A stretch of DNA of 64,000 bases from Halarcobacter sp. (GTDB taxonomy: Bacteria > Campylobacterota > Campylobacteria > Campylobacterales > Arcobacteraceae): assembly GCA_963676565.1 (NCBI GenBank), contig OY781089.1:2080001-2144000 (forward strand). The letters are read 5' to 3'. Positions 4,290 through 57,517 of this stretch are shown here, piece after piece (position 1 is the first letter of the stretch; every line of letters starts with the position of its first letter). The notes beneath the pieces are model-generated. The model had not been told where the DNA came from. It worked only from the letters and a program-made list of their open reading frames with translations, and ran no database searches. Position numbers and translations under genes: made by a program.

Positions 4290-4295
4290 TATAAT
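4290..4295 (+). promoter_or_regulatory. Putative sigma70 -10 element of the small HTH-like gene
   Basis: TATAAT 30 nt upstream of the ATG at 4326; GAGGAG Shine-Dalgarno before the ATG. Confidence 0.55.
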
Positions 4296-4325
4296 CCTCC
4301 TCCCAAATCACTACAGAGGAGATAA

Positions 4326-4640: not shown

Positions 4641-4676
4641 ACTCAAATATTTTATAATATTTATTTTGATAGTTTC

Positions 4677-4946: not shown

Positions 4947-4963
4947 AAGTAAGGCATTTAGCC

Positions 4964-5812
4964 TTACTCTACAATTTGATGTAATTTAGAACATCTACTT
5001 AGAAAAGTATCCATCCCACACATATCATTGTACATATCATCAAAAGAATGAAAGTGTGCATCATATATGTATACAAAGATTTCATCACCTTTTTCTAAAA
5101 AGTGTTTTTTACCAAATTCTGCGTAAGCTGTTGCCCCAGCGGCAATTAATAAGCCCTTTGCATCTTTTGCATTTTTTGTAAATTGTGTTAACTCTTCTAA
5201 TGGTCCCATATCCTCTTGGGTATTTAGTTTTTCAATCATCCAGTCTTTTAATTGTGTGAAAAAATAGCTATATGAATTAACCGCAGAAGTGGTACCATAA
5301 TCATGAACAACACCATTTCTTTTTATAAAAGAAGCAATATGATATCTATTTAATATCCCTTCTTCTGTGAAATTATCAATCTTAATTGCATCTCTTGAGA
5401 TACCCTTTGTATTCTTTCCCCAGTTTTTTTTAGTACTTAATTTATTTCCATCTTGTATTCTTATTGAAAAGTCATTAAAAGCAGAAAAGTATTTTGGAAT
5501 AATATCAACAACTTTTTCATTTTCATAAATAAAGTCACAAATTAATGCAACTTCAGCTTCAACTTGTAAATTGTCCTCTTCTCTTCCATGGGTTTTAATA
5601 GTTTCATCACATATAGGAAATGTACCTAAAAATGAATCATGCCCTGGAATATAAAAGGGGAACATACCTTTTGGAGCATCTTTTTCTTTTGTTTGTATAA
5701 CTGCAAATTCATCAGCTTCACCAGCTTCTCCTAAATGATTTGCAAAGTTTCCTGCAACACCAAACCCTAAATAATCTTTTAATTCTTCTAAATCTATATA
5801 TTTTTTTTCCAT
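4964..5812 (-). CDS. Conserved hypothetical protein (DUF5718-like)
   Basis: N-terminal GFGVAGNFANHLGEAGE and KLSTKKNWG motifs, recalled as DUF5718-type; SD AAGG upstream. Confidence 0.6.
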   Translation of the reverse strand: MEKKYIDLEELKDYLGFGVAGNFANHLGEAGEADEFAVIQTKEKDAPKGMFPFYIPGHDSFLGTFPICDETIKTHGREEDNLQVEAEVALICDFIYENEKVVDIIPKYFSAFNDFSIRIQDGNKLSTKKNWGKNTKGISRDAIKIDNFTEEGILNRYHIASFIKRNGVVHDYGTTSAVNSYSYFFTQLKDWMIEKLNTQEDMGPLEELTQFTKNAKDAKGLLIAAGATAYAEFGKKHFLEKGDEIFVYIYDAHFHSFDDMYNDMCGMDTFLSRCSKLHQIVE

Positions 5813-5911
5813 TTTATTACCTTTAATATTTTTCTTTAACAGTAAGTTTTTTTTGTATGTGATTATTTAAAATTGTGAGGTTTGTGGTTAGTTTACGTTA
5901 GATTTTTGTTT

Positions 5912-6025
5912 TTATCTTTGACGTGTACAGCGACTCTCACAATTTTTTACTTTTGCTTTCTTGACTTCGACGAGCCCAAGGGCAATAGCAAGTTTTGTTG
6001 TGACAGTGACAATTAAGTTTTTCAT
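5912..6025 (-). CDS. Unannotated 37-aa peptide MKNLIVTVTTKLAIALGLVEVKKAKVKNCESRCTRQR
   Basis: Read manually: AAAGGA SD, ATG at 6025, TAA at 5914-5912. Locally GC-richer than flanking intergenic DNA. Confidence 0.6.
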   Translation of the reverse strand: MKNLIVTVTTKLAIALGLVEVKKAKVKNCESRCTRQR

Positions 6026-6044
6026 TATCAATCCTTTTAATAAA

Positions 6045-6075
6045 TATAGATAAGAAGTTTAACTTCTTATCTATA
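6045..6075 (-). terminator. Hairpin downstream of the CitE/Mch operon
   Basis: TATAGATAAGAAGTT-T-AACTTCTTATCTATA perfect 15-bp inverted repeat about 20 nt after the stop at 6097. Confidence 0.7.
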
Positions 6076-6096
6076 ATTTAATCTTAATCTTTAAAA

Positions 6097-7080
6097 TTAA
6101 GAGAAAAATCTAGTGTTTACTTCATCCATTAATTTAGCACCAGAAAAATGTGCTCTTTGAACTAATTCCCAGAAATATCTATATGTAGCTCTATCGTGTA
6201 ATTCACCATCATATTGAATTGGTCCCCACTCAGCATCTTGTGCATTTAATAAAATATTTTGTGCAGCTTCTAATTCTGTAAAGTCTGGTTTCATAGCATC
6301 TACAATTGCTTGTACTTGTGTTGGGTAAATTGACCACATTCTCATAAATCCAAACTCATTTCTTGCTCTTTCCGCATCTTTATAAGTTTGATATGGGTTT
6401 TTAAGATCAAGTGTTACATTGTGACAAGGAATAACATGGTTTTGAATAGCCGCTTGCGCAACTTTTGCTTTAGCTGCACCAATTAGTCTATGATCAAATT
6501 GACCAGGACTTCTCATATTAGATGCAGGAATCGCCCCTTGATAACCAGAAACAAAGTCCATTAATCCAAAGTCTAAAACTTGAAGCCATGGTAAAGTTGC
6601 AATTTTTTCAACATCTTGTAATGCTCCGTGAGTTTCAATTAAGATATGAATTGGAATCTCTCTTGTAATACCAGATTTTTTAGCTACCTCTTGAATATAC
6701 TCAATTTGAGTTTTAACATCTTCATAAGAAGTTGATTTTGGTAATGTAATATATGCTAATTTTTCTCCAGCACCTGGAACTAGAATATCAACATCTTGTC
6801 TCCAATCTGGATGTGAGAAATCGTGAATTCTTGTACCAGCCATTGCATATGGGTTAGCATCAGAGTTAACAACTCTAACAATCATTTCAGCGTGTTCAAC
6901 TTCTTTTCCAGTTTCTGCTCCATCTTCGCAGTCACAAGTAATATCAAATACAGGTCCAAGTTTCTTTTGCATTTCGAAACCTTTTAAAATTAGTTTCTCG
7001 CTTCCTGCAAAGTGCTCACAAGTTGGGATAATTGGTAAAGATTTACCAGATTCAAATAGTGCTTCGTTTGGATGTGTCAT
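6097..7080 (-). CDS. CitE/HpcH-HpaI superfamily CoA-ester lyase
   Basis: DCEDGA, TRIHD, LIETHG, FGLMDF and GELHDRA motifs of the CitE/malyl-CoA lyase TIM barrel. Confidence 0.85.
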   Translation of the reverse strand: MTHPNEALFESGKSLPIIPTCEHFAGSEKLILKGFEMQKKLGPVFDITCDCEDGAETGKEVEHAEMIVRVVNSDANPYAMAGTRIHDFSHPDWRQDVDILVPGAGEKLAYITLPKSTSYEDVKTQIEYIQEVAKKSGITREIPIHILIETHGALQDVEKIATLPWLQVLDFGLMDFVSGYQGAIPASNMRSPGQFDHRLIGAAKAKVAQAAIQNHVIPCHNVTLDLKNPYQTYKDAERARNEFGFMRMWSIYPTQVQAIVDAMKPDFTELEAAQNILLNAQDAEWGPIQYDGELHDRATYRYFWELVQRAHFSGAKLMDEVNTRFFS

Positions 7081-7107
7081 AATAATTTCCTCTCTTTAAA
7101 TTTATTT

Positions 7108-8181
7108 TTATTTCTTTTTTGTTTTTTTCTTTGGAATGATTACAGTGTAATCTAAATCAAGTACTACATTTTTTAAGTACTTACCATCTTCACCTTTTGG
7201 ATTTTCAATTTCTGAACTTTTTTGATTTTTAACAGCAACTGTTCTTAATCTTAATAATCCTAAGTCATCTCTTTTGTGATCAATTACATCTAAAACCTCA
7301 GTATATGCATATATTGTATCACCAGCATATGTTGGGTTACAGTGAGCTCCACTATTAATTGCATAAACCCATTGAGCGTTTTGTAAACCATTAAATGAAA
7401 TTGCCCTTGCAATTGATATTACAATACCACCATACATCAATCTCTCTCCCATAGGAGTAGACTTCATCATATGGTCATTGAAGTGTACCTTTGCATTGTT
7501 TTGGTATAACTTTGTTGCTAAAGTATGGTCACTATCATCAATTGTAATGCCCTCAGGGTGATTAAGTCTTTCTCCAACTTCATAATCTTCGAAGAAATAC
7601 TCCCCACCGGTTGCATTAGTATCAACCATGTCAATCTCTGGGATATTGATATCTTCAACTATTGGTGTTGATTCAGCAAATGTTGGAACATCATTGATAC
7701 CAAGCATAGTTTCTTTGTCTTTTTTGTGAACCATAACCCATCTTTTGAAGTTTAACACCTCTTTATCTTGCTCGTTGTATCCAATTGAATGAACATAAAC
7801 AACTCCAGATTTTCCATTTGAATTCTCTTTTAATCCAATTACGGTTGATTCCATTCTAACTGTATCCCCAATAAATACTGGGTTAGGAAAAGAGATTTCA
7901 GCATAACCTAAATTTGCAATTGCATTTAAAGATATATCTTGAACCGATTTCCCAAATGTTAAATGGAACATTAAAATATCATCAATTGGTCTTTCGTTGT
8001 ATCCAATCTCTTGTGCTAATTCATCAGATGAATGTAAAGCAAATCTAGAACCAGTGAAGGCGATGTATAAAGATACTTCACCTTCTGTTATAGTTCTTGG
8101 AAGAGGGTGGATAATTTTTTGTCCAATTGAAAAATCTTCAAAAAAGTTACCAACATTTATTTTTGTACTAATTTTAGACAT
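7108..8181 (-). CDS. mch: Mesaconyl-CoA hydratase (beta-methylmalyl-CoA dehydratase)-like double hot-dog MaoC protein
   Basis: GNFFEDF, FGKSVQDISLNAIANLGYAE, VIGLKENSNGKSGVVYV, RWVMVHKKD and YQNNAKVHFN closely match Mch-type enzymes. Confidence 0.8.
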   Translation of the reverse strand: MSKISTKINVGNFFEDFSIGQKIIHPLPRTITEGEVSLYIAFTGSRFALHSSDELAQEIGYNERPIDDILMFHLTFGKSVQDISLNAIANLGYAEISFPNPVFIGDTVRMESTVIGLKENSNGKSGVVYVHSIGYNEQDKEVLNFKRWVMVHKKDKETMLGINDVPTFAESTPIVEDINIPEIDMVDTNATGGEYFFEDYEVGERLNHPEGITIDDSDHTLATKLYQNNAKVHFNDHMMKSTPMGERLMYGGIVISIARAISFNGLQNAQWVYAINSGAHCNPTYAGDTIYAYTEVLDVIDHKRDDLGLLRLRTVAVKNQKSSEIENPKGEDGKYLKNVVLDLDYTVIIPKKKTKKK

Positions 8182-8190
8182 TTACCTTCC

Positions 8191-10710
8191 TTATTTTCCA
8201 AATAGGTTTTGACCTAAAGATTTATATGTATCATAAAGTGTAATCATCTTTTTAGCCCATTTAATTCTACACTTGTCAACAAGTTTATCTTTAAATTGAA
8301 TAACCTCTTTACCATCTTTTTCAGCTTCTTCGTATTTAGAAATCATCTCTTCATACTCTTGAACCTCTTTTTGAGTTGGAGTAAAGATATCATTGATGTA
8401 CTCAACTTGAACTGGGTGGATTAATGCTTTACCATCAAATCCTAAATTAAATGCATCTTTTGTTGAATCTTCACAAGCAAATTCATCATGAACATCATTA
8501 TGTGGTCCATCAATAACTGTTTTACCATATGCTTTTGCTGATAATGCAATACGTGCTAGGTAATTAAACATAGCTTTAGAACCTTTTTTAATATCAATTT
8601 GAAGTCTATTTGCTAAGCTATTTGAACCAACAACAATAACCTCAGTTTTCTTTGAAGCTTCACAAATATCAGGTGAATTTAAAATTGCCAATGGAGTTTC
8701 AATCATCACCATCATTGTTAAGTCAGGATTAACTTCATTAATTAATCTTTCTGCTTCTAAAACTTGCTCAACTGTTTCAATTTGTGAAAATAAAATTGCA
8801 TCAATTTCAATCTCTCGTGCAAGTTCTAAATCTTTTGTTAATTCTTCAGTTCCAATGTTATTAACTCTTAAAACTCTTTCTGATTCACCAAATTTAGAAC
8901 CCTCTTCAGCATAAACTTCTCTAATTGTATTTCTTGCAATCTCTTTTTGTTCATGTAAAATAGCTTCAATATCAAATACAACAGAATCTGCTAAAACAGT
9001 TTTTGCTTTTTTTACATACTTTTTATTATAAGCTGGAACAAACATCATTGATCTTCTAGCTTTATATTCAACAATCTCTTCACCTGTTTCTTGCGAATGG
9101 TATTGTTCATGTAATTGTTTAACAAGTTGTTTTCTTAAAACTTTTCCATTTTTAGTTCTTGGATAATCTTTCATCCCAAAAATAACTTTTGGAGCTTTAT
9201 ATTTAGCAAGATTTGTTTGAGAAAATGCAAGAATCTCTTGCTCTTGCTCTTCTGTTAAATCTTCATGTCCAATAACTGCAATAGCAACTAAAGTTTTATC
9301 TTTTTCTAAATCAAGACCAAAGGCAACACAATCAGCTACTAAATCGTGAGTTTTTACAACTCTTTCAATCTCATGTGGAGATACTCTAAATCCAAACGTG
9401 TTAATGATGTCATCTTTTCTACCAATGAACCAAATATATCCATCTTTATCTCTTTTTGCATAATCACCTGTAAAGAAATATCCATCATGTCTAGCTTTAG
9501 CTGTTTCTTCTTCTAATTGCCAGTATTCTAAGAATAAACCTGGATCATCTTCACCTATACAGATCATCCCTTCTTCTTCTAATCCAACTTCTTCTAAAGT
9601 ATCTGGATCAAGTAGTTTTACAATGTGTCCTGGCTGAACAAATCCTGCACTTCCAGGTCTAATTGGATTGTTTTTAGAGTGTGAAATATAATATGAACAC
9701 TCAGACATACCAATTGCTTCAAAGATATCTTGATTAAATCTTTCTCTCCATAAACCTAACATCTCATCAGATAAATGCTCACCAGCAGACATACAGTATC
9801 TTAATGATGGACAATCTTTAATTGAGAAATCAGTTTTTTGAATGATTTGTCTATAAATTGTTGGAACCCCAATGAAAATTGTACATTGGTGTTTTTTAAT
9901 TAAATCAATCCATGTTGAAGCATCATTTGCTCCTTCATATGCAATTACTGTATGACCATTAAATAATGGATCCATAAGTGCAGAACCTAATACATAAGTC
10001 CAGTTAAATTTACCAGAGTGCATGATTCTATCATTCTCTTTAAAATCAAACCAATATTCAGTTGCAGGAGTTCTACCAACTAATGATCTATGAGAGTGTA
10101 AAACTCCCTTTGGATAACCAGTTGTTCCTGATGTATATACTAAATATGCAGGCTCACCAGATTTTGATGGATAATGATTAGGTGTTTTATCTGTATTTGC
10201 TAAAATCTCATTTAAAGCATATACTTTCATACCCTTTGGCACTTTATAATCTGCAACACTATCTACACCAGCAACAATAATTGTTTTTAGATTATCAACA
10301 TTTTCTAAATATGGAACTAGATTTTCAAACATAGTTGCACTCATAACAATTGCACTAGCTTGTGAATCTTCAGCAAGATATTTAACCTCTGAACCACTTA
10401 AAAGTGTAGACGTTGGTACTGCAATAATTCCAGCTTTAATCGCACCAAAAAATGAGATTGGATATGCTAAAGAGTTTTTTAAACAAACTAAAACTCTATC
10501 TCTAGCTCCAATTCCAATTGATGTTAGGAAGTTACAAACCTGGTCTGATTTTTCTGATAACTCTTTATATGTAATCTCATCAGTACCAAGTTTATCATCT
10601 TCAATGATCATTGCAGTACTATTTTCTTTTGCTGTTCCTAAATGACTTGATGTACAAGCTACACCAATATTTAAAAATTCAGGTACTTCAATTTTTACAT
10701 TTGAACTCAT
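8191..10710 (-). CDS. Acyl-CoA synthetase (AMP-forming) fused to a C-terminal CitE/Mcl2-like domain
   Basis: ANL motifs YTSGTTGYPKG, GMSE, TGD, GRKDD and PRTKNGK in the first ~535 aa; then RRSMMFVP, LRVN, MIETP and GFDGKALIHPVQ (CitE fold). Confidence 0.85.
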   Translation of the reverse strand: MSSNVKIEVPEFLNIGVACTSSHLGTAKENSTAMIIEDDKLGTDEITYKELSEKSDQVCNFLTSIGIGARDRVLVCLKNSLAYPISFFGAIKAGIIAVPTSTLLSGSEVKYLAEDSQASAIVMSATMFENLVPYLENVDNLKTIIVAGVDSVADYKVPKGMKVYALNEILANTDKTPNHYPSKSGEPAYLVYTSGTTGYPKGVLHSHRSLVGRTPATEYWFDFKENDRIMHSGKFNWTYVLGSALMDPLFNGHTVIAYEGANDASTWIDLIKKHQCTIFIGVPTIYRQIIQKTDFSIKDCPSLRYCMSAGEHLSDEMLGLWRERFNQDIFEAIGMSECSYYISHSKNNPIRPGSAGFVQPGHIVKLLDPDTLEEVGLEEEGMICIGEDDPGLFLEYWQLEEETAKARHDGYFFTGDYAKRDKDGYIWFIGRKDDIINTFGFRVSPHEIERVVKTHDLVADCVAFGLDLEKDKTLVAIAVIGHEDLTEEQEQEILAFSQTNLAKYKAPKVIFGMKDYPRTKNGKVLRKQLVKQLHEQYHSQETGEEIVEYKARRSMMFVPAYNKKYVKKAKTVLADSVVFDIEAILHEQKEIARNTIREVYAEEGSKFGESERVLRVNNIGTEELTKDLELAREIEIDAILFSQIETVEQVLEAERLINEVNPDLTMMVMIETPLAILNSPDICEASKKTEVIVVGSNSLANRLQIDIKKGSKAMFNYLARIALSAKAYGKTVIDGPHNDVHDEFACEDSTKDAFNLGFDGKALIHPVQVEYINDIFTPTQKEVQEYEEMISKYEEAEKDGKEVIQFKDKLVDKCRIKWAKKMITLYDTYKSLGQNLFGK

Positions 10711-10726
10711 AATTTCAACTCCCTAA

Positions 10727-11860
10727 TTAGATTTGACCATAAGGCCAGTTTTCTTTAAATGTATGTAATGGCATTTTATTTAATACTGTTACAGCAAACT
10801 CATAATCTTCTTTACTTAAACTATTAAGTGCATTTGCTCTTAAGATATTTTGTAAAGATTTACCAAACATTGGTGGATCTAACATTTCACCTTCATATCT
10901 AATAGCTCCACTTAATAAAGCATCTGTTTCAATAGCTGCTTTTAAAATATCTACATCTTTTGCAATTTCTTTTGGAGATGGAGTAAATGCTACTTTACAA
11001 ACATTGATATGATTAGGAGTAATAACTTGTTTACCTGTTAATCCCATTGCATATTCTCTTTGTGCATGTGCATAAACATGTCTTGATGCATCATCACCAT
11101 GCAAATCTAACCATCTTCTAATATCTTTTTTCTCAACGCAAGAATCTGGTAATGAATTTGGAGTAAGTAAAACTTCAACCCCACCAATTACACCTTTACC
11201 TTGTATTCTAGCTTCCATAGTAAGCATATTAAAAAATGTTTCTAATTCATCAATCCAACCCTCAGGAGTGATTTTGTATGACATAGCTTTTGAAAAGTCA
11301 TGGATACCAAATACTAAGTGTTGTACAGTTGAAAATTGCATTAACTTATCAGCAATCTTAAGTGATTTTGGGTGTTCAATAATTGGTTGAATTTGTAAAT
11401 TCGATCCAATTGAAATTAACCAAGATGATAAATCTCTAATCTCAGCTGCTCCATATACTTCACCAGCTTTTGCTAAAACAATTGCATCAATATATTTGTG
11501 AATTTGTTTTAACATTTTTAAATCTTCTTCGTATTCAGCTGTTCTAAATGGATTAATTCTTACAGCAATTTGAAAATCTCTTTCAGGAAACTTTGGAAGT
11601 TCTTGAATTAGTAATTCCCTTGACATCTCTTTTTGTCTACATCCATCTTCTAAGTCAAATAAAACTGTATGAGCTTTTGTTTTGTAAGCATGTTTTTGTA
11701 ATCTATATTTAGCTTGCTCCATAGTTTCATAAGTTCCATCAAGTGGATTAAACTTAATTGGTGGATAATAAATTTGAATACCTGGCCATTTTCCCCCTAG
11801 CACAGGTGATAAATCGTCATTTGCAGTTAATTTTGATAAATCTACGAAAGATGAATTCAT
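10727..11860 (-). CDS. CitE superfamily CoA-ester lyase (malyl/methylmalyl/citramalyl-CoA lyase-like)
   Basis: FDLEDG, VRINP, IIEHP, FGIHDF, GLTGKQVITP and GEMLDPP motifs. Confidence 0.8.
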   Translation of the reverse strand: MNSSFVDLSKLTANDDLSPVLGGKWPGIQIYYPPIKFNPLDGTYETMEQAKYRLQKHAYKTKAHTVLFDLEDGCRQKEMSRELLIQELPKFPERDFQIAVRINPFRTAEYEEDLKMLKQIHKYIDAIVLAKAGEVYGAAEIRDLSSWLISIGSNLQIQPIIEHPKSLKIADKLMQFSTVQHLVFGIHDFSKAMSYKITPEGWIDELETFFNMLTMEARIQGKGVIGGVEVLLTPNSLPDSCVEKKDIRRWLDLHGDDASRHVYAHAQREYAMGLTGKQVITPNHINVCKVAFTPSPKEIAKDVDILKAAIETDALLSGAIRYEGEMLDPPMFGKSLQNILRANALNSLSKEDYEFAVTVLNKMPLHTFKENWPYGQI

Positions 11861-12194
11861 AATTTTTCCCTCTTTTCCTAATAATTTCTGTTAAAAATCT
11901 TATTCAGATTGATTTCTGATAGACGAATTAATCCATATATAAAATAAACTGAATCATACTTTTAAAAATTAATTTAAATTTTAAGAAAATTTTTATTATT
12001 GTTGTAGGCACCATAAAATAGGGCTTTTTTAAAGTGAGAATATGATAGTTTCACAATGTGAGAAAATTTTTTTCAAAACTCTTATAATGTAAAAAATTTT
12101 TTTCAAAATTTGTACAATTTTGTAGCTTATTTAGGAACAAAATATTTTTTATAGTTCAAAAAGGAGATAAATTCTTTATACATTTATTGAAAAA

Positions 12195-12962
12195 ATGATA
12201 AAATCAAAAAAAATTAATAGAAGAGATAAATTGCAAAATAGTCCAAACAAGTCTTTTAAAAAAGGGCTTCAAGTCTTAAAAGAGATTATGAAAGCCAATA
12301 AACCAGTTACAGCTAATACTTTATGTCAAAAACTTGAAATAGATAAAAGTACTATGTCTAGATTAGTTACAACTTTGATGAGTGAAGATTTTATTGAATA
12401 TAAAGGTGATTCAAAAGAGATTATTTTAAGTGACATATTAAGAAAAATTGTATTTAAAAATGATAGAGAAAAAATTATAGAAAAAACTGCTGCTCTTTTA
12501 GATCAGATTTTTCATCTAACCAATGAAGCGGCATATATCTACATATTGGATAATAACTTAGCTTTAAATCTAAATCAAATAGATATGTCAACTCGGGTTT
12601 TAAAAACTAGAGATTCAATTGGATTACATTCACCTTTACATGCTAATGCTTTTGGAAAAGTTCTTATTGCTTTTACCCCTGAAGTAAAAATAGATTCTTT
12701 AGAATTAACAAAATATACATCTTATACAATAACATGTAAAACAAAATTACAAAAAGAGTTAGATCTAATCAAAGAAAGAGGTTATTCAATTGGTACTGAA
12801 GAGTATGAATTTGGATTGAAATCTGTTGCTGTTCCTTATTTTGATAAGCAAAATAAATTCATAGGTGCAGTTGGAATATCTGGATTATCAGTTAGACTTG
12901 AAGATGAAAAACTTCATAAATTTGGGCAAGAGATTTTTAAATTAGTTAATAGTTACAACTAA
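12195..12962 (+). CDS. IclR family transcriptional regulator (start may be the TTG at 12231)
   Basis: N-terminal HTH (LEIDKSTMSRLVTTL); PLHANAFGKVLIA and GYSIGTEEYEFGLKSVAVP effector-domain motifs; divergent from the CitE operon. Confidence 0.9.
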   Translation: MIKSKKINRRDKLQNSPNKSFKKGLQVLKEIMKANKPVTANTLCQKLEIDKSTMSRLVTTLMSEDFIEYKGDSKEIILSDILRKIVFKNDREKIIEKTAALLDQIFHLTNEAAYIYILDNNLALNLNQIDMSTRVLKTRDSIGLHSPLHANAFGKVLIAFTPEVKIDSLELTKYTSYTITCKTKLQKELDLIKERGYSIGTEEYEFGLKSVAVPYFDKQNKFIGAVGISGLSVRLEDEKLHKFGQEIFKLVNSYN

Positions 12963-44189: not shown

Positions 44190-44465
44190 CTATTTACCTA
44201 TTTTTTCTGCAATCGCTTGAATATCAGCGTCAGAAAGACCTGTAACTTGTGGTTTCATAATTGCTTTCATTGGACCACCATAAGTTCCATCTTGATACCC
44301 TTTTAATGAATCAATAATCTCTTGTTTAGTCATATCTTTCATTATTTTAGATTTTCCTAAAGCAACTTTTTCTCCATTGGCACCATGACATGCAACACAT
44401 TTAGCATAAGGGTTTGCAAAAGCAGCTCCAGCTAATATTGCAGTTAAAATTAAAACTTTCTTCAT
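44190..44465 (-). CDS. Cytochrome c553-type monoheme cytochrome
   Basis: Signal peptide, CVACH heme motif, YGGPMKAIM axial Met. Confidence 0.93.
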   Translation of the reverse strand: MKKVLILTAILAGAAFANPYAKCVACHGANGEKVALGKSKIMKDMTKQEIIDSLKGYQDGTYGGPMKAIMKPQVTGLSDADIQAIAEKIGK

Positions 44466-44584
44466 TATCTTCTCCTTAAATTTTATTTTTAAAATTATAA
44501 TTAAAAATTGTAGAATAAAAATGGACTTATGTCAAGAAAAAAATAATTATTTTTTAAAAAAGTATAGTATTTTTTTATACTATA

Positions 44585-46162
44585 CTATTTTAAAGAGTCT
44601 AATAATTCTGCTTTTAATTCCTCTTTATTGATTTTATTCTTATCACTTGGAATTAAAGGAAGTGATTTTTTATAAATTATTCTATTAGGAATCATATAAG
44701 AAGCTAGATGATTTTTAAGTTCAAAAGTTATCTCTTTTGGAGGGATTTCACTTCTAGAACTATAAACCATAACTATCTCTTCTTCAATTTCATCATTTGG
44801 AATTGAGAATATTGCACATTGCTCAATTTGTGGAAAATTCTTTTCAACAACTGATTCAACCTCAAAAGGACTTACTCTAAATCCTCTAGTTTTAATCATG
44901 TCATCTCTTCTACTTACAAAATAGAAATATCCCTCTTCATCTTTATAAACATAATCTCCTGTTGCAACAACAATTTCATCTCTTAATTGTCCATCTAAAT
45001 TGATTACATTTTTTAAAATTTGAATCGATTTAAATCTTTGAGCCGTTTCAATTGGAGCATTCCAAAAACCTTTGTAGATATATCCACCTCTGTGGATTAA
45101 TTCACCCACTTCTCTTGGTTTACACTCATATCCCTCTTCATTTATAACATATAATTCTACGTCTGGAATAGCTTTTCCAATCGATTCAGGTCTAATATTT
45201 ATTTGTGATGGTTCTAAATATGTAGATCTAAATGCCTCTGTTAAACCATGCATTGAATAAAAGTTAACTTGAGGAAAATATCTTTGGATATTTTTTACCA
45301 TTTTAGGTGTTACATTTCCACCTGAAGAGGTAATAGTTTTTACATTAGCTAATAATTCAGGACTTGGTATTCTATGTTCATCTTCATCAAACATTGCATT
45401 TATAGTCACAGGCATCATAGCTACAACTGTTACATTATCATTTATTAAATGGTTGAAAAAATCTCCTGGTAAAATAAATCTATGTAATGCTAATGTTGCT
45501 CTTTTGTAAAGTGAACAAAAAATTTGATTTAAACCATAATCTAGATTAAAAATTAAAATTCCAGAAAGGACATCATCCTCTTGTAAATCTAAATATGAAG
45601 AAACAACCCTTGCACTATCAATTAAGTTTCTATGAGATATTACAATACCTTTAGGTGTTCCTGTTAATCCAAAAGAATAAGTTATTACAGCATTATCATG
45701 ACCATTTACTGTAGTTTCATATGGTTTTTTATAGTATTTAAAAATCTCTTCAAAAGAAGGGATATCTTTATGGGCAGTTTCGTATGAGATAATATGTCCA
45801 TCAAAATTAATTGATTCAATAGATTCAAGTTTTAATTTATCAGTAATAATACATCTAATATCACAATCATTGATTATGTATTCCACCTGTTCACTTTTAA
45901 GTAACTTTGTAAGTGGTACAAGCACATAATTGGTAGATAATATAGCTAGTATTGCTATAACTTGGTCCATACCTTTATTTGAGTAGATACCAATTCTACT
46001 CCCTGCTGGTAAATCTAACTCTTTTAAATAAAAAGCAATTTGATTAACTTTTTTTAATAACTCTTCATAAGTAATAGATTTCTCATTGTGTTTTATTGCT
46101 ATTTTATCACTATGTGTTAACGCAGCACTTTCAATTAATGATCTTATACAATTTATTGACAT
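44585..46162 (-). CDS. AMP-dependent ligase (ANL family) with atypical A3 motif
   Basis: YSFGLTGTPKG, MHGLTEAFRSTYL, TGD and SRRDDMIKTRGFRVSP motifs. Confidence 0.85.
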   Translation of the reverse strand: MSINCIRSLIESAALTHSDKIAIKHNEKSITYEELLKKVNQIAFYLKELDLPAGSRIGIYSNKGMDQVIAILAILSTNYVLVPLTKLLKSEQVEYIINDCDIRCIITDKLKLESIESINFDGHIISYETAHKDIPSFEEIFKYYKKPYETTVNGHDNAVITYSFGLTGTPKGIVISHRNLIDSARVVSSYLDLQEDDVLSGILIFNLDYGLNQIFCSLYKRATLALHRFILPGDFFNHLINDNVTVVAMMPVTINAMFDEDEHRIPSPELLANVKTITSSGGNVTPKMVKNIQRYFPQVNFYSMHGLTEAFRSTYLEPSQINIRPESIGKAIPDVELYVINEEGYECKPREVGELIHRGGYIYKGFWNAPIETAQRFKSIQILKNVINLDGQLRDEIVVATGDYVYKDEEGYFYFVSRRDDMIKTRGFRVSPFEVESVVEKNFPQIEQCAIFSIPNDEIEEEIVMVYSSRSEIPPKEITFELKNHLASYMIPNRIIYKKSLPLIPSDKNKINKEELKAELLDSLK

Positions 46163-46174
46163 CTTATTGCTCCT

Positions 46175-47362
46175 TTATTTATTCATACCCAAAGTCCAAA
46201 TATCATAATTGTTATCCATTACAATAGTTGGGTTGTGGTTAGAGTTTAGAATCTTCTTATAGAAAAATGATACTATATCTTCTATTTCCTCTTGCTTGAG
46301 AACTTTTGTAATTCCACCTGTTAGTACAATAGAATTAAGTACATTTAGTTTTAAATTAACATAGGCTTTTCTAAAAGTTGAAACTTTACATAAAACTAAG
46401 AATATTGCTAATTGCATCAGAATTCTAGTGCTTTTTTCACTTTTCTCATCAAAAATATTTTCAGTAACTTTTAAATGTGCTAGTAATTCATAAACAAACT
46501 CATTGTTTTTTGCTGCAAAGATTAATGATTCCCTTGATTTATATACACCAAGTTTTTTAAATACTAATCTATCATATTCATTTTGAGTTACCATATTTTC
46601 ATCAACTAAGTCTTTTGAATAGTGGATATCAGTAGTTGCTCCACCAATATCTATCAAGATATAAGGATTAGCAACTTTAAATTTACCATCTATCATTGGT
46701 AAAGTTTTATTAACAATATATGGTGTTGAGTAGATTTGATTTGATGTAATATCATATAGACTTTTAATATCTTCTTTTCCCATAATATCAGCTTGATAAA
46801 GGTTTGTTAAATACTCTTTTAAATGTTCCTCTTCAACATGAAGTCTATTTGTAATAATATTTGGAAGAACAACAAGGTTTTTTATTTTTTCTTTTAAAGA
46901 AGGAGCTTCTTTTGAGCTTCCAACATATACAATATTTGAATATTTTATTTTCTCAAGGTATTCAAATAGTTTTTCATCAAAAATATTAGAAACAGAGTCG
47001 ATCCCCCCAACAATAATTACTACATCGATTAAATCACTTGGAATTGAAGTTTTTTCAATATCTTTATATAAAACAGTATCAATAATATTAATACCTGAAT
47101 TAAAGGCGATATTAGTAGCATATTTTAAAGAAAAAGAGTTTGTAACACCGATGATTAATGTACTTAAACCACCATTTGCCGATGAACAAATATATACATC
47201 ATCTTTTTTATAATTATGGATTGTATCACCACATTTATATGTTAAATCATCATAAATATCTTTATTAAAGTCTCTAAAATGTTGCTCAACTCCATGTACT
47301 GTACATACTTTAAAATATGTACTTCCCACATCAATTAATAATTTATCATTTATTTCACTCAT
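46175..47362 (-). CDS. glmL: Glutamate mutase reactivase GlmL/MutL-like
   Basis: IDVGSTYFK, CSSANGGL and IDIGGATTDIH ASKHA motifs; ATG at 47362 follows an AAGGA SD. Confidence 0.85.
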   Translation of the reverse strand: MSEINDKLLIDVGSTYFKVCTVHGVEQHFRDFNKDIYDDLTYKCGDTIHNYKKDDVYICSSANGGLSTLIIGVTNSFSLKYATNIAFNSGINIIDTVLYKDIEKTSIPSDLIDVVIIVGGIDSVSNIFDEKLFEYLEKIKYSNIVYVGSSKEAPSLKEKIKNLVVLPNIITNRLHVEEEHLKEYLTNLYQADIMGKEDIKSLYDITSNQIYSTPYIVNKTLPMIDGKFKVANPYILIDIGGATTDIHYSKDLVDENMVTQNEYDRLVFKKLGVYKSRESLIFAAKNNEFVYELLAHLKVTENIFDEKSEKSTRILMQLAIFLVLCKVSTFRKAYVNLKLNVLNSIVLTGGITKVLKQEEIEDIVSFFYKKILNSNHNPTIVMDNNYDIWTLGMNK

Positions 47363-47370
47363 ATTCATCC

Positions 47371-48738
47371 TTACCACTGCATAATACCGATATCATGGAT
47401 AATATCGTTTACAATTGATGTAGTATCTTTTTTCAAATCACATTGAGATTTTTCATATTCAAAACATCTGTCTGGAATTGGAACTTTACCTCTATCTATT
47501 ATTCTAATGTTTTTATTTTTATCTCTAATTGTAATCATGTTATTGTGATTAATAATATGTGGAGAGAATGGTACATCAATTGTTCCATTTTTGATTGAAT
47601 TAAATACTTTTCTCCATAAAGTGTCTGCAGGATCATTAAATACTGCTTCCATAATGGCCATAACTTCTGCTGTTAGGTTTTCCTCTTCCTCTTGGTCTAC
47701 AATATTTGGTAAACCATTTAAGATTCTAAGTAAGTATTGAGTATTTGCAACAGTTTCTGCATTTGCTTCTTTTGTTGGGATTCCTGAAGCTTCTTGTTTT
47801 GTTTTTGTAATAATTTTATCAGCTCCAACCATTGAAGCAATAACCGTACTCATAGAGATTAGTTGAGTTGCATAGTTTTGATCTTCCGGAAATGCACCCA
47901 TCCATTGGTGATAAACAAGGTGAATATCCGCATCTTCACACCCAATCTCATTAGCATAATATTTTGCCATTTTCTTTAAAACTGCAGCTGTTACAATATC
48001 TTGATTCATTGAACCTTGTTGTGAAAAAGAAACAGAAAATGATTTAACTCCCTCTTCAAGAGAAAGTAACATCTCTAAAAGTTGTATAACAATAGTAATA
48101 CAAGGTGGGACTAAAGTAGCAGTTAGTGGTCCAAATGATTCTCTATTTATTGGTTCATTTAGTTTTGAATATTGTGCACATACTCTTTCTACATATTTCC
48201 AGTATAAAAATGCTTTGTCTAATGGGAAATTTTTAGAGTAGGGTAAAAGGTAAGTTATTGGACCACCTTCAATCTCAAAAATACCAGAAGCTATTGCCGT
48301 TTCAATTAAAAGTCTTGCATCCGGAGTACCATGTCTTAATGAAATAGGCTTATTAAAGTGAGTCATCATTTTTCTAGTAGTTCTATATCCATGGTTAATT
48401 AAAGGATAACCATTTAACATATCAACTTCACTCTCTTCACTAAGTCTAAGCATCTTTTTAGAGGTTGCATAATCATTTAATCTTGTATTAGAATCGATTG
48501 TACAAGGAAGAACATCAACATCAGCATCATTAAAAAACTCATATAAAGCAAACATTTTATTGTATGTAGGAAAACCACCTCTTGGTTGTACTAACATTTT
48601 ATTTTTTGTTTTGAAATTATAAGAGATAAACAAATCTTTTGAAGCATTTTTAACAAAGTCTTCAACTTCTGCAAAATCAAAATTATCTACATATTCATTG
48701 TTTAAAATAATATTTCTTTCTTCTTGAAGTAAACTCAT
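47371..48738 (-). CDS. glmE: Glutamate (methylaspartate) mutase E subunit
   Basis: QPRGG, TIDSNTRLNDY, LNGYP, RHGTPDARLL, EGGPITY, NRESFGPLTATL and HQWMG motifs. Confidence 0.92.
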   Translation of the reverse strand: MSLLQEERNIILNNEYVDNFDFAEVEDFVKNASKDLFISYNFKTKNKMLVQPRGGFPTYNKMFALYEFFNDADVDVLPCTIDSNTRLNDYATSKKMLRLSEESEVDMLNGYPLINHGYRTTRKMMTHFNKPISLRHGTPDARLLIETAIASGIFEIEGGPITYLLPYSKNFPLDKAFLYWKYVERVCAQYSKLNEPINRESFGPLTATLVPPCITIVIQLLEMLLSLEEGVKSFSVSFSQQGSMNQDIVTAAVLKKMAKYYANEIGCEDADIHLVYHQWMGAFPEDQNYATQLISMSTVIASMVGADKIITKTKQEASGIPTKEANAETVANTQYLLRILNGLPNIVDQEEEENLTAEVMAIMEAVFNDPADTLWRKVFNSIKNGTIDVPFSPHIINHNNMITIRDKNKNIRIIDRGKVPIPDRCFEYEKSQCDLKKDTTSIVNDIIHDIGIMQW

Positions 48739-49148
48739 TATTTTCTTCCTTCCATGAATTTTTCAAGTTCATCTAAACCAGTATTTAAATCTACTTGGTG
48801 AAATACTAAATCAAAACCATAATTTTTAAATTTTGGAACAATATCATCAGCATACCCTGTACCAACTACTAAGTTACCACCAATCATGAATACAACATTA
48901 TCCAATAAGTTACCATATTGAGCTTTTAAGATTCTAAGCTCTCTTGCCCAACCCTCTGCTTCACCATTAAGTGATGAAATTAATAAAATATCAGCATTTG
49001 TTTCAATCACTGCATCAATAAACTCTTCTAAGTAAGTATTTACACCTAAGTTGAATACTTCGAATCCTCTTGCTTGCAGTGAAAGTTCTATAAGTCTATT
49101 TGCTACTACGTGGATATCATTTCCCACTACGCCAGTTACTACTTTCAT
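48738..49148 (-). CDS. Glutamate mutase S subunit (B12-binding; MamA/MutS-type)
   Basis: DIHVVA (DxHxx base-off/His-on), SSLNG and IGGNL motifs; stop overlaps the glmE start. Confidence 0.9.
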   Translation of the reverse strand: MKVVTGVVGNDIHVVANRLIELSLQARGFEVFNLGVNTYLEEFIDAVIETNADILLISSLNGEAEGWARELRILKAQYGNLLDNVVFMIGGNLVVGTGYADDIVPKFKNYGFDLVFHQVDLNTGLDELEKFMEGRK

Positions 49149-53396: not shown

Positions 53397-55985
53397 CTAT
53401 TTTGCCTCATATTTAATAATTACTGGTTCTGAGTAGTTTGGAACTTCATCATATGTAAAGATTGCATAATACTTATCAATATCTTTAGCCCCAAAATCAT
53501 CATATGTATAGTTATCAGTCCCTGCATAAAGTTTTTGTCCATCATGGGTAGAATAGGGTTCCCTAAATGCATTTTTAATAACTTTAGTCCCTTTAAATCC
53601 TACATCTTTAGGGTTTTCCCAGCTGATTTTGATTTTACCATTTTCCAAAGATAGTGAGGTATTAGTAACTTTTGGAAGAGGGTATCTTCTTTTTGGAATA
53701 TGTTCAATAATTAATTTTGGAGAAAGTGCTTGGTTTTTAATCTCCCACGTAACACTTTTATTCTTTATACTCTTTTTAGAAGAGGTTGGTTTTAAAACAA
53801 AAGCAACATCAGATTTATTTTTTAGTTTCTCATTTAAAATAATCTCTGCAAAACTATCAAATAAGAAATATTGAGTTTGATTATTCTTTAATTCATTTGC
53901 ACTTACATCATAACCAATATTTTGAATAATTTCTCTATTTGCTATTGAATCATAATCTTGGTCGATATTTTCATCCACAAATTCAAGGTGAAATCGAATA
54001 TCATCTTTTATATAAATATTTGTAGAATTTAGCTCAAAGTAAGCTTTTGTAATCATCGTATCTTCATGAGGAGGCATTGATGATAAATTAAACTCAAAGG
54101 TAGAGTATATTTTCTTACCATTTTCATCGAATCCTGATGAAATACCATCTTGAGTAATACAATCTTTACAAACTGTAAACACTTTTTTTGGATATAGTTC
54201 TGTAATTGTTGGTTTTATTGTATATGTTAATTCTAATCTTGGTCTATATGTTAAACCATAACCAAATTTTCCATACCCAATATCCCATTGCATCATTTGT
54301 CTAGTACGACCAATTATCAACTCTTTTGGACCTTCAACTCTGAATACAACTTTTCCATATTTTTGACCCATTTCTTGAAGAGTTTTACACTCCATTCTTG
54401 AAAAACTCCATGTTCTCCATATACCTTGAGTTAATTGGTGAGATTCTGTAGGTCTTCCAACATATTGAAGAATTTGCATATTATCAACATCTTCATATTT
54501 GGTAATATCACCCATAGTTTCTTGATCTACAATACCAACATTCCATTCACCGTATTTTTCAATAGTTGTTGAAACTCTATTAATTGGGTAAAGGTTTATT
54601 GAGGCATCTTTTATGATTGCATTTTCTGGAACAGAATTTAAACCAACAGTAACAATAGCATAAGAGATACCCTTATTTTCATCAATTCCTACAAATAAAG
54701 AGTTTACACCAAAATGTGAAGCATTGTTGTTTAGGTTTTCAGCAACATAACCTGTTTCTTTTGCTGTTGCATAATAGGTTCTACTAAACTCATCATAATC
54801 ACAATCTGTTCTAAGTCTTATTTGAGGGTAAAATGGTGATTTTTCACCTGTTAATTTATTTACAACCCTAATATTGTAGAAATAATCTTTATTTGAAGTT
54901 AAATTAATATCACTAAATTCTAAAGTTTGTGTTCTTGCAATTAAGTTTGAACTATTACAAAAGTGTTTATCTTTTTGGGCTCTATAAATCTCAAAGAATA
55001 TATTTTCATTTGTTTCATATTCCCATTTTAAATTTACATGATGTGATCCTATTTCTGTAATCTCAAAGCTATTAACCCTTTTTACTGAATTATTTTTTGA
55101 ATAGTTTGGAACTTCGTTTACCGCAGAAAGTAATGCAGGAATATGTTCCCGCAAATTTTCATTCATATCATCCATATAATCACTTATATTTCTAGTTCCA
55201 ACTTCCACAACAGTTGAGATGATTCCTAAAGAATGATAAAACTCTCTACCACTTCCTGAAATCAATTTAATAGGTGGTTTACCTTGATGGATACCATATT
55301 CTCTACCTGAAATTTTTCTAATCTCTTCAGCCATATTTGCACATAAAGTGTTCATATCAGTTGTATCAATTGTATCTTCATGTCTAAAGTCGTGTGCAGG
55401 GAAAAATACATTTCCTTGTGAGTGGTAGTCTAAAGCAATAGTAATATTCTTATGGGCTTCAACAAAATCTCTTAATGCTCTAGTCTCAGGTTCAGAAAAT
55501 GGTTCTGGACCACCATAAACATTAGATGTTGTTTTGGTTGATTTTACATATCCAATTGGAAAATTTCTGTTTAAATCAACACCATAAGAACCATCTATAT
55601 TTGGTCTTCTATTTTTTCTCCAAAAAGAGAAGTGATTATAAGAATAATCAAAGCCATCTGGATTTGCACAAGGGACCATATAAATAGTAGTTCCTTTTAA
55701 ATATGATTGTATAGTTGTATCTGTATCTAATTTTTCTAATATATATTGTGCAAATTCTACTGCTAATTCATGTCCAATCCATTCTCTAGCATGGATAGTA
55801 CCAGTAAAAAATAGTGCTGGTTGTTCATCTGCTTTTTTAATATCCATAGAGATAGTAATTAGATTAATATCTCTTTTTTCCCAAGTTTGACCTATTGATT
55901 CTAACTTGAAATTATTAGGAAATTTTTTTTCTAAATCTTTAAAAATTTCAGTCGATTCATTATATGATCGATAAAGTTGTTTCAA
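53397..55985 (-). CDS. Large M14 zinc carboxypeptidase with C-terminal beta-rich (FN3-like and other) domains
   Basis: GTIHAREW (HxxE), WRKNRR, GVDLNRNF, PFSEPET, DYHSQG and VEVG; no signal peptide. Confidence 0.88.
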   Translation of the reverse strand: MKQLYRSYNESTEIFKDLEKKFPNNFKLESIGQTWEKRDINLITISMDIKKADEQPALFFTGTIHAREWIGHELAVEFAQYILEKLDTDTTIQSYLKGTTIYMVPCANPDGFDYSYNHFSFWRKNRRPNIDGSYGVDLNRNFPIGYVKSTKTTSNVYGGPEPFSEPETRALRDFVEAHKNITIALDYHSQGNVFFPAHDFRHEDTIDTTDMNTLCANMAEEIRKISGREYGIHQGKPPIKLISGSGREFYHSLGIISTVVEVGTRNISDYMDDMNENLREHIPALLSAVNEVPNYSKNNSVKRVNSFEITEIGSHHVNLKWEYETNENIFFEIYRAQKDKHFCNSSNLIARTQTLEFSDINLTSNKDYFYNIRVVNKLTGEKSPFYPQIRLRTDCDYDEFSRTYYATAKETGYVAENLNNNASHFGVNSLFVGIDENKGISYAIVTVGLNSVPENAIIKDASINLYPINRVSTTIEKYGEWNVGIVDQETMGDITKYEDVDNMQILQYVGRPTESHQLTQGIWRTWSFSRMECKTLQEMGQKYGKVVFRVEGPKELIIGRTRQMMQWDIGYGKFGYGLTYRPRLELTYTIKPTITELYPKKVFTVCKDCITQDGISSGFDENGKKIYSTFEFNLSSMPPHEDTMITKAYFELNSTNIYIKDDIRFHLEFVDENIDQDYDSIANREIIQNIGYDVSANELKNNQTQYFLFDSFAEIILNEKLKNKSDVAFVLKPTSSKKSIKNKSVTWEIKNQALSPKLIIEHIPKRRYPLPKVTNTSLSLENGKIKISWENPKDVGFKGTKVIKNAFREPYSTHDGQKLYAGTDNYTYDDFGAKDIDKYYAIFTYDEVPNYSEPVIIKYEAK

Positions 55986-55988
55986 AAA

Positions 55989-57491
55989 TTACTCTCCTAT
56001 TTTAAGTCTAGATTTTAATTGAGCTAATTTATTTTTCCCAATACCTTCAAGCTCTTTTAATTGATCTAAATCTTTTAAACCTTCATTTTTATTTCTGAAT
56101 TCAAAAATATTTTTTGCAAGTTTAGCACCAATACCTTTTATTTTCTTTAATATTGATTCGTCAGCTGTATTTATGTCAACTCTCATATCATCTAAATTCT
56201 CATCCCAAGTTTTTAGAACTTGTTCATCTATAGATTCTAACTCTAATAAATCACTTGAATCAGTAATAACATTGTTTTTTGCATATTCACTAATCTCTAA
56301 AGCTAAATCCTCTTCCATTCCATGTAAAGTCATTAAATCAGTTAATGATGCACAATTTAAATTTAATTTATTAATCTCTAAATTATCCCTAACTGCATTT
56401 TTTGATAACTCTTTTGCAATAGGTAATTTTTCAAAAGCAATTGAAGCTGGCACATCACTTGGTAAACTAGGTTCAGCCATTTCCATTTTAAATTTATCTT
56501 TTGGCTCATTAATAAAATATGTTCCATCACAAGATGGTTTGTATTTACTAAAACCAATATGTCTCATTGTTCTTAATAGTGATGAGTCAATTTTTCCAAG
56601 CTCTTCCCATGAGAATAATGGAACATGAGGCATAGGAAATTTACCATTTGAAAAATCCCACATTAAATATTGACAAATCCAATCTCTAATATAAGGGAAC
56701 GCTGCAAATGCAGTTGCACATTCTAGTATATAGGCTTTATCTGTTTTTGCATCAATTGCAATATCGCAAGCCCAATATTCAGCTTTTGCTGCTTTACTAG
56801 CTTCTACTGCTAATTCTAAAGCATTCATAGGAACATTTTCATATGACATAGAACCACCTTGAGATGTGTTAGTAATCCATTGTCCTTCCCCTGAAAATCT
56901 CCAAAAGGCGCAAACAGGTTTATGTCCAATTAACATAACTCTAATATCTCCAGAAAATTTTAAATCAATAGCATCTTGTGTATAAATGGGGTTATATTTT
57001 TCTTTTTCTAATAAAGCTTTAGCTTCTTTAAAATTATCAACTTTATGAACATAATATCCACCATAATTTGATGGTCCATAACTTCTTTTTATAATTTGTG
57101 GATACTTAGCTTTATTTTTTAGGTATTTAAATCCCTTTTCTTTATTGTAAAAAATCTTTGTATATGGTGCTGATAGATTATACTTTTCACAAAAAAGTGT
57201 AACATTCTCTTTTGATTTATTTGGAAATTGGGTTTCTAAAGATGGAACAAATCTTACATTTGGTAGTTCTTTTGAAATCTCTACAAATGTATCATATGCT
57301 GTTGCAGGGATATTTCCTATAAGTACATCGATTTTTTTTCTTTTAACTTCTTTTATAAATCTATTTTTATCATTTTTCCAATGATATGTAACAGACTCAA
57401 TCTTGTCTGGCCAACCTTTAAAGTTTGATTTGTCAAAGAATCTCAAAACATAATCTAAATACAAAAAACCTAACTTTGGTAATTTTTTCAT
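55989..57491 (-). CDS. ATP-grasp ligase-like protein fused to ComEA-like helix-hairpin-helix repeats
   Basis: IIKRSYG, DIRVMLIG, WITNTSQGG, ACDIA and ILEC; C-terminal DINTA...IKGIG...LEGIG. ATG at 57491 follows an AAGGAAG SD. Confidence 0.82.
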   Translation of the reverse strand: MKKLPKLGFLYLDYVLRFFDKSNFKGWPDKIESVTYHWKNDKNRFIKEVKRKKIDVLIGNIPATAYDTFVEISKELPNVRFVPSLETQFPNKSKENVTLFCEKYNLSAPYTKIFYNKEKGFKYLKNKAKYPQIIKRSYGPSNYGGYYVHKVDNFKEAKALLEKEKYNPIYTQDAIDLKFSGDIRVMLIGHKPVCAFWRFSGEGQWITNTSQGGSMSYENVPMNALELAVEASKAAKAEYWACDIAIDAKTDKAYILECATAFAAFPYIRDWICQYLMWDFSNGKFPMPHVPLFSWEELGKIDSSLLRTMRHIGFSKYKPSCDGTYFINEPKDKFKMEMAEPSLPSDVPASIAFEKLPIAKELSKNAVRDNLEINKLNLNCASLTDLMTLHGMEEDLALEISEYAKNNVITDSSDLLELESIDEQVLKTWDENLDDMRVDINTADESILKKIKGIGAKLAKNIFEFRNKNEGLKDLDQLKELEGIGKNKLAQLKSRLKIGE

Positions 57492-57517
57492 TCCTAACTT
57501 CCTTCTCAATTTATTAA

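Follow-up and report, generated by a model that had tools for sequence, protein, structure and literature searches.

What consumes the product of a glutamate mutase when the mutase operon ends in an adenylating ligase instead of methylaspartate ammonia-lyase (Mal)? The question is raised by a four-gene cassette of Halarcobacter sp. (assembly GCA_963676565.1), located in a 64,000-nucleotide stretch of contig OY781089.1 (positions 2,080,001 to 2,144,000), which is referred to here as the window. Its four open reading frames (ORFs) are arranged head to tail on the minus strand and encode the components S and E of a mutase, an accessory protein L and a stand-alone enzyme hereafter called the ligase (Table 1). 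Glutamate mutase has known roles in glutamate fermentation and in the methylaspartate cycle of haloarchaea, and it also supplies 3-methylaspartate to large polyketide synthase (PKS) and nonribosomal peptide synthetase (NRPS) assembly lines. Based on the sequence analysis described below, we suggest that the operon is probably a self-contained module in which 3-methylaspartate is first made and then activated, the compound being consumed by ATP-driven activation and not by a Mal-type deamination.

In the Pfam search S matched PF02310 (47 bits), and it passed the cut-off of NF002612, "methylaspartate mutase subunit S" (153 against 110 bits). Its motif reads D-I-H-V-V-A, with Ala in place of the Gly of DxHxxG, which we take to be the base-off/His-on motif expected in an S-type B12-binding domain. 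E scored far above the cut-off of PF06368 (Met_asp_mut_E; 396 against 26.6 bits) and narrowly missed that of the equivalog TIGR01503 (381.9 against 390.1 bits). Its closest solved structures in a phmmer search were the epsilon chains of Clostridium glutamate mutase, 6h9e_B and 1cb7_B (E = 4e-82). An earlier note on this DNA had read the QPR, TR, RHG and EGG motifs of E as carrying the glutamate-binding Arg residues and the catalytic Glu, and they do align with R66, R100, R149 and E171 of the solved chain; E is identical to the C. cochlearium E chain at these positions and at Y177, Y181, K326 and E330. The three arginines presumably form the substrate-binding claw, with E171 as the catalytic Glu and K326 and E330 as adenosyl contacts. 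Because the substrate-binding and adenosyl-contact residues are fully conserved, we conclude that S and E, as far as sequence can tell, are a real adenosylcobalamin glutamate mutase, which would convert L-glutamate to (2S,3S)-3-methylaspartate.

The third protein, L, passed the broad MutL model PF13941 (99 against 27 bits) and failed both TIGR01319 (54.6 against 204 bits) and the GlmL equivalog NF040745. Since its NF040745 score of 74 bits is far under the cut-off of 475, L is a distant member of the GlmL family; this membership suggests an ATP-dependent helper of the mutase.

The genes had been described as tightly coupled, and this holds for all four ORFs. The S and E genes have one base in common. 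Between E and L there is a 7-nucleotide overlap if L starts at the GTG, or an 8-nucleotide gap if it starts at an ATG. Because relatives of L align only from residues 4–12 onward, ATG 47362 is a likelier start than GTG 47377. The spacer between L and the ligase has 12 nucleotides and contains AAGGAG. Judging by this spacing, the S, E, L and ligase genes are translationally coupled. A terminator-like hairpin with a perfect 10-bp stem follows directly 3′ of the ligase stop codon; it was not listed by the hairpin scan, which demands three or more G-C pairs. The region's best promoter-like match (11/12, 44535–44507) lies after the hairpin, ahead of a cytochrome c gene, in a scan that gave 40 matches with 35.7 expected and so did no better than shuffles. 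With the hairpin after the ligase stop and the promoter-like site before the cytochrome c gene, the operon therefore ends with the ligase. A search with Rfam gave no match in the window, neither to a riboswitch nor to any other RNA family. Only in Arcobacteraceae does the small cytochrome c gene (44190–44465), which has its own promoter-like site, stand 3′ of the cassette; relatives have between one and three copies of it in tandem.

The absence of a Mal gene from the window, noted earlier, extends to the whole genome, which is a single contig of 3.34 Mb and 99.97% complete. When this genome was searched for methylaspartate ammonia-lyase domains, no match to MAAL_C (PF07476) was found, while the control matched in 11 reference genomes. 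MAAL_N (PF05034) gave no match in the genome either, but its control matched in no control genome, so this result has little weight.

To describe the linkage of mutase and ligase, a set of 61 related genomes was used, consisting of the window genome and 60 relatives. The 33 of these that have E are precisely the 33 that have the ligase. In all 20 short loci from this search, L and the 3′ end of E are next to the ligase, and 11 of the 12 longer stretches carry S-E-L-ligase, the exception being genome G047. In a wider scan, with one genome per species and the ligase alignment as query, the best 80 of 259 confirmed relatives were analysed. Their hosts are Arcobacteraceae, Sulfurimonadaceae, many Gammaproteobacteria (Colwellia, Thalassotalea, Amphritea, Neptuniibacter, Granulosicoccaceae, Halieaceae, Reinekea and others), one Parasphingorhabdus and one Rhodothermales metagenome-assembled genome (MAG). 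Isolates of Arcobacter, Poseidonibacter, Colwellia, Neptuniibacter, Amphritea and Granulosicoccus are among them. All four genes follow in order in 73 of these 80 loci; the other seven are interrupted by contig ends inside E or L. The gammaproteobacterial proteins are 73–78% (ligase) and 82–88% (E) identical to those of the window, and the module proteins as a whole are 73–93% identical between phyla. In 91 of 92 loci, whose hosts are Campylobacterota, Gammaproteobacteria and others, S-E-L-ligase forms a single block, with L as the gene immediately before the ligase. Because E and the ligase share the same 33 genomes and L adjoins the ligase in all but one locus, the linkage of mutase and ligase is far beyond chance. 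Conservation of the neighbourhood, which the earlier note had named as a check, was thus found, and G047 is the only genome in which the ligase is unlinked.

A FastTree phylogeny of 93 ligases, rooted on three relatives of the TIGR03098 type (a quick tree without a topology test), recovered a gammaproteobacterial clade (39 rows, support 96) nested within a larger one that also holds Sulfurimonadaceae (52 rows, support 99) and that is itself nested within Campylobacterota. This pattern fits transfer from Campylobacterota to marine Gammaproteobacteria. The flanks beyond the module and its partner genes are unrelated between lineages and contain transporters, housekeeping genes and, twice, a transposase. 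In two Halieaceae genomes (loci L081 and L105) ISL3 and IS91-type transposase genes stand beside the module. One Oceanospirillaceae MAG has about 1.9 kb inserted between L and the ligase (L111:8137-10000). The single Rhodothermales copy (L102) is nested in Granulosicoccaceae in the tree, which may reflect a recent transfer or a binning error.

The pocket of the ligase was compared with enzymes of solved structure. The ligase matched PF00501 (201 bits), and its best solved relatives were NRPS adenylation domains (LgrA, 206 bits). Its segment FNLDYGLNQIF aligned with the A4 motif of LgrA, which places D208 at the amino-group-binding Asp of adenylation domains, and its β13–β14 loop, after GLTE, is one to two residues shorter than in two LgrA domains for α-amino acids. 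According to passages of a 2024 review (PMC11253843), the structures 3WV4, 3WV5 and 3WVN represent VinN, which binds (2S,3S)-3-methylaspartate as a β-amino acid. The same passages attribute this mode to a loop shortened by one residue, to F231 and S299, which are bulkier than the Ala residues of GrsA, to K330 and R331 in the shortened loop, and to D230, which contacts the β-amino group.

A search with ligase residues 180–350 alone gave an alignment with VinN (3wv4, 3wvn; chain numbers as printed are 16 higher than the published ones) that is gap-free from A4 through the β13–β14 loop. It pairs D208 of the ligase with D230 of VinN, Y209 with F231, S280 with S299, F311 with K330 and R312 with R331. 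M304 corresponds to the Met before YGQTE, so that both enzymes have Met at GrsA position 322. Of the six β-amino-acid features of VinN, as given in those passages, five are present in the ligase, and K330, replaced by Phe, is the exception. In a MAFFT alignment of 93 ligase orthologs, D208–Q213, S279–G281, M304 and E309–S313 are identical in every row. The A5 (GLTE), A7 (GD) and A8 (RxDDMIKTRGFR) motifs are kept in 92–93 of the 93, with R419, D421 and R426 of A8 varying. The A3 loop YSFGLTGTPKG, singled out as atypical before, is indeed so, and its Y162, S163 and F164 are kept in 92–93 orthologs, which makes it a trait of the family.

Based on the pocket residues and the loop length, we suggest the following pathway. 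The ligase would bind 3-methylaspartate as a β-amino acid in the manner of VinN and use ATP to form an acyl-adenylate on its C4 (β) carboxyl group. Because no dedicated carrier protein exists, the activated acyl group would most likely pass to a diffusible nucleophile; our guess is coenzyme A (CoA) or pantetheine first and a small amine second. The earlier proposal that the ligase, in place of Mal, takes up the 3-methylaspartate is supported by the absence of a Mal domain, by the co-occurrence and adjacency of mutase and ligase in every sampled lineage but one, by the conserved amino-binding Asp and by the VinN hallmarks of the ligase.

The best NCBIfam model for the ligase, and its best-scoring curated family, was TIGR03098, [quoted passage not shown] (436.7 bits, under the cut-off of 592.35), at 30–34% identity. 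The motifs FD[YF]GLNQ and M[HY]GLTEAFRSTYL of the pocket are common to the cassette ligase and its TIGR03098-type relatives, which supports the proposed substrate class; from these motifs, the whole TIGR03098/cassette ligase clade probably takes aspartate-like substrates in the VinN manner. The two groups differ in that the relatives have a canonical A3 loop (YTSGSTG) and are joined to, or lie beside, modules of the decarboxylase, carrier-like, acyltransferase or glycosyltransferase kind, whereas the cassette ligase does not. No fused form of the cassette ligase was found among longer proteins, which yielded only TIGR03098-type relatives of 31–34% identity. These longer relatives are fused to a pyridoxal phosphate (PLP)-dependent decarboxylase of the ornithine/diaminopimelate (Orn/DAP) type, to an LGGDSL segment with Acyl_transf_3, or to glycosyltransferases. 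For example, P0002, P0003, P0006, P0009 and P0012 carry either the Orn/DAP-type decarboxylase or the carrier-like LGGDSL segment with Acyl_transf_3. The context of TIGR03098, going by the model description, is presumably a neighbouring TIGR03099-type decarboxylase, and none of this type was found beside the cassette in the 92 loci.

Several results weigh against the activation of 3-methylaspartate as proposed here. Overall similarity to VinN is low (120 bits for the full ligase against 3wvn), and the Lys at VinN position 330 has become Phe. Pocket motifs identical to those of the cassette ligase occur in TIGR03098-type relatives in polysaccharide contexts without a mutase; therefore, the pocket may fit aspartate as well as methylaspartate. 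At the position of the canonical A10 Lys (K510, window 44633–44635), 53 of the 93 rows have K, 24 have Q and 9 have R, while the last seven show L, I, E, S or a gap. The residue changes within Colwellia and within Sulfurimonas, and no other nearby Lys is universal. Together with the atypical A3 loop, this indicates that the adenylation chemistry may be unusual. The AlphaFold model of the ligase is poor around the pocket loops, with a predicted local distance difference test (pLDDT) score under 50 at residues 305–335. A Foldseek search of the PDB with this model returned generic ANL enzymes, namely CoA ligases and aryl-acid and NRPS adenylation domains, at a template modelling (TM) score of about 0.55, which does not discriminate between them. 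In G047 the ligase is on a 7-kb contig (C52, locus L030) and E is on another (C61), and this is the only locus with the ligase away from L and E. The ligase neighbours there are a 162-aa asparaginase-N-like ORF and genes for a 2-oxoacid:ferredoxin oxidoreductase. The choice of acceptor is the weakest step, given that the fused relatives use carriers and the cassette ligase has none.

Among known systems, the closest parallel is the vicenistatin pathway of Streptomyces halstedii (VinH/VinI, VinN, VinL, VinO), in which a glutamate mutase likewise feeds a stand-alone adenylating enzyme. As stated in passages of PMC11284099, VinN loads 3-methylaspartate from the glutamate mutase VinH/VinI onto the acyl carrier protein (ACP) VinL before decarboxylation by VinO. 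The 92 cassette loci, in contrast, lack an ACP, a PLP decarboxylase, a second ligase, an acyltransferase and a PKS. Their ligase has low overall identity to VinN, an RraA-like partner is present, and in place of actinomycetes the hosts are marine Campylobacterota and Gammaproteobacteria. With the fermentative and haloarchaeal methylaspartate pathway (glmS-glmL-glmE-mal) the cassette shares the S, E and L components and the substrate residues of E; it differs in its order S-E-L, in having the ligase in place of Mal and in its distant GlmL. In the literature on the cassette, its hosts, VinN, the route to isoleucine, ligases linked to exosortases and the adenosyltransferases of Campylobacterota, at the level of abstracts and passages, no account of an S-E-L-ligase module was found.

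To find genes that travel with the cassette, the ORFs of the 92 loci were clustered and the clusters annotated with Pfam. An RraA-like protein of 159 aa (PF03737) was found in 67 loci, always upstream of the cassette and in divergent orientation; its gene is at most 600 bp away from S in 46 of these 67. It passed the RraA equivalog cut-off (146 against 136 bits), and all 67 copies keep G-[DE]-x20-R-D, which we take to be the metal- and enolate-binding motif of the 4-hydroxy-4-methyl-2-oxoglutarate/4-carboxy-4-hydroxy-2-oxoadipate (HMG/CHA) aldolases and oxaloacetate decarboxylases. What sets this protein apart from the PF03737 family is that it accompanies a B12 mutase operon in different phyla, with 60–87% identity. 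In the window genome its ortholog (G000:C1:2342078-2342554) lies 213 kb from the cassette, among five RraA-like paralogs. At 60% identity or more, an ortholog occurs in 26 of the 61 genomes, all 26 of them cassette-bearing, and in none of the three cassette-less genomes of the same genus. We conclude that the RraA-like protein, of the class II pyruvate aldolase/oxaloacetate decarboxylase family, is a co-inherited part of the same functional unit as the cassette.

A second partner is restricted to Gammaproteobacteria. A class I/II aminotransferase of 395 aa was found in 20 of the 92 loci, all gammaproteobacterial, with the order aminotransferase, RraA-like gene (reversed), S, E, L, ligase. It passed the AspC/TyrB-type model NF006719 (567 against 377 bits) and belongs to the functional unit of the cassette in Gammaproteobacteria. 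It is absent from all Campylobacterota copies of the module among these loci, and tblastn at 1e-5 found no homolog in the window genome. Our guess is that the substrates of both partners are the corresponding 2-oxo acids (oxaloacetate or 3-methyloxaloacetate). Across the 92 loci the block has no conserved carrier protein, condensation domain or decarboxylase as a companion, and the whole window genome has one PP-binding domain, of ACP size.

The alternative that survives best is a catabolic route independent of Mal, which we regard as unlikely. In it, the ligase would form 3-methylaspartyl-C4-CoA, and loss of ammonia would give mesaconyl-C1-CoA. Hydration and cleavage would then yield propionyl-CoA and glyoxylate or, via citramalyl-CoA, acetyl-CoA and pyruvate, so that glutamate carbon enters central metabolism. 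β-Elimination from a β-aminoacyl thioester is chemically easy, the nearest NCBIfam model is named acyl-CoA ligase, no carrier protein accompanies the cassette, and an IclR-controlled operon with a mesaconyl-CoA hydratase gene is found in the same window. However, this operon does not track the cassette and carries a ligase of its own, no ammonia-lyase candidate travels with the cassette, and the RraA-like partner is left unexplained. The hydratase is present in 30 of the 61 genomes, all of one family. With this query it was not found in seven cassette-bearing genomes (G021, G036, G039, G041, G047, G058 and G059), and it occurs without the cassette in four (G018, G023, G028 and G034). As the two do not co-occur, the hydratase operon was rejected as the downstream route of the cassette. 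It stands in the window (2849–12962) as a second operon, for C5-dicarboxylate CoA chemistry.

Table 1. Positions, in the window, of the cassette genes, the hairpin that follows them and the genes of the second operon
Feature	Position	Strand	Product length	Remarks
Glutamate (methylaspartate) mutase S, cobalamin-binding component	48738-49148	minus	136 aa	Cassette; PF02310 and NF002612 matches
Glutamate mutase E, catalytic subunit	47371-48738	minus	455 aa	Cassette; PF06368 match
GlmL/MutL-like accessory ATPase L, probable mutase chaperone/reactivase	46175-47377	minus	400 aa	Cassette; length counted from GTG 47377
Stand-alone ANL-superfamily adenylating enzyme (ligase)	44585-46162	minus	525 aa	Cassette; PF00501; VinN-like pocket
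Terminator-like hairpin	44555-44586	minus		10-bp A/T-rich stem, A6 loop, T6 tail; read by eye
IclR regulator gene	12195-12962			Divergent from hydratase operon
HpcH-like lyase	10727-11860			Hydratase operon
AMP-binding/HpcH-lyase fusion	8191-10710		839 aa	Hydratase operon
Mesaconyl-CoA hydratase (PF19315)	7108-8181			Hydratase operon
Second HpcH-like protein	6097-7080			Hydratase operon
DUF5718	4964-5812			Hydratase operon
Major facilitator superfamily (MFS) transporter	2849-4096			Hydratase operon

A route to 2-oxobutyrate is another alternative, and we hold it to be quite improbable. It is possible to draw it as transamination of 3-methylaspartate to 3-methyloxaloacetate, followed by decarboxylation to 2-oxobutyrate by the RraA-like protein, with the ligase in a side branch or a regulatory role. 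This would be the old glutamate/β-methylaspartate route to isoleucine, reportedly described by Abramsky and Shemin in 1965. No genes besides those for the aminotransferase and the RraA-like protein accompany the cassette, their families would suit an aspartate analogue and an oxaloacetate analogue, and the motif kept in every RraA-like copy is in keeping with such a step. This route, however, leaves the ligase, the most conserved and always-linked gene, without a role. The aminotransferase is missing from the Campylobacterota modules, that of the window included, and the window genome has a probable threonine dehydratase of its own (a 406-aa frame with a weak Thr_dehydrat_C match of 20.6 bits).

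We give the same low standing to a decoration pathway in which the ligase, like its TIGR03098-type relatives and like VinN with VinL, would load aspartate or methylaspartate onto a phosphopantetheinyl carrier encoded elsewhere, perhaps the ACP of fatty acid synthesis, for transfer to a lipid or surface polymer. It finds its support in the nearest longer relatives of the ligase, with their carrier-like, decarboxylase or glycosyltransferase fusions and the same pocket motifs. Against it, none of the lineages shows a conserved carrier, transferase or decarboxylase next to the cassette, and the genome has a single PP-binding domain.

In a more elaborate scheme, which we consider a long shot, the module of five to six genes would form a C–C bond without a carrier and so yield an as yet undescribed marine metabolite of wide occurrence. 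The aminotransferase would make oxaloacetate and glutamate from aspartate and 2-oxoglutarate, after which the mutase and then the ligase, by activation at C4, would act. The RraA-like protein would decarboxylate oxaloacetate, and the resulting pyruvate enolate would attack the activated acyl group. The amino-diketo diacid so formed would cyclise to a methylated 4-oxo-dihydrodipicolinate (chelidamate-like) ring. For Campylobacterota, where the module would run in the absence of known cobalamin adenosyltransferases, the scheme would further call for either obligate uptake of intact adenosylcobalamin or a fourth adenosyltransferase family. Finally, that the ligase acts on a substrate unrelated to the mutase product, the linkage being one of co-regulation only, is the least probable reading of all: the atypical A3 and A10 motifs and the one genome that separates ligase from mutase genes speak for it, and the perfect co-occurrence in 61 genomes, the adjacency in 91 of 92 loci across phyla, the translationally coupled genes and the VinN-like pocket speak against it.

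The mutase of the module is of the adenosylcobalamin type. In the window genome, no CbiC and no adenosyltransferase of the CobA/BtuR type or the PduO/EutT type was found, and the only other B12-binding domain lies in a frame of 1159 aa. Among the 61 genomes, PF01923 occurs in none and PF02572 in two (G039 and G052), so that 32 of the 33 cassette-bearing Campylobacterales are without a known cobalamin adenosyltransferase. Two further Campylobacterota hosts also have no PF02572, whereas three gammaproteobacterial hosts have it. In the Campylobacterota hosts, either intact adenosylcobalamin is scavenged or an adenosyltransferase goes unrecognised.

Apart from the cassette, the window contains at 53397–57509 a RimK-like ATP-grasp protein with helix-hairpin-helix (HhH) repeats (506 aa), directly upstream of an M14 carboxypeptidase of 862 aa. 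This pair suggests the addition and removal of glutamate tails.

Under the proposed reading, the cassette would represent glutamate mutase chemistry in a minimal unit without an assembly line, carried by sulfur-oxidising and heterotrophic marine bacteria. Its strong conservation between phyla, together with its horizontal spread, argues for a useful, so far unnamed product. The cassette may thus serve as an entry to a new B12-dependent pathway, to a carrier-independent β-amino-acid activating enzyme that tolerates loss of the canonical A10 Lys, and to the question of how Campylobacterota get adenosylcobalamin without a known adenosyltransferase.

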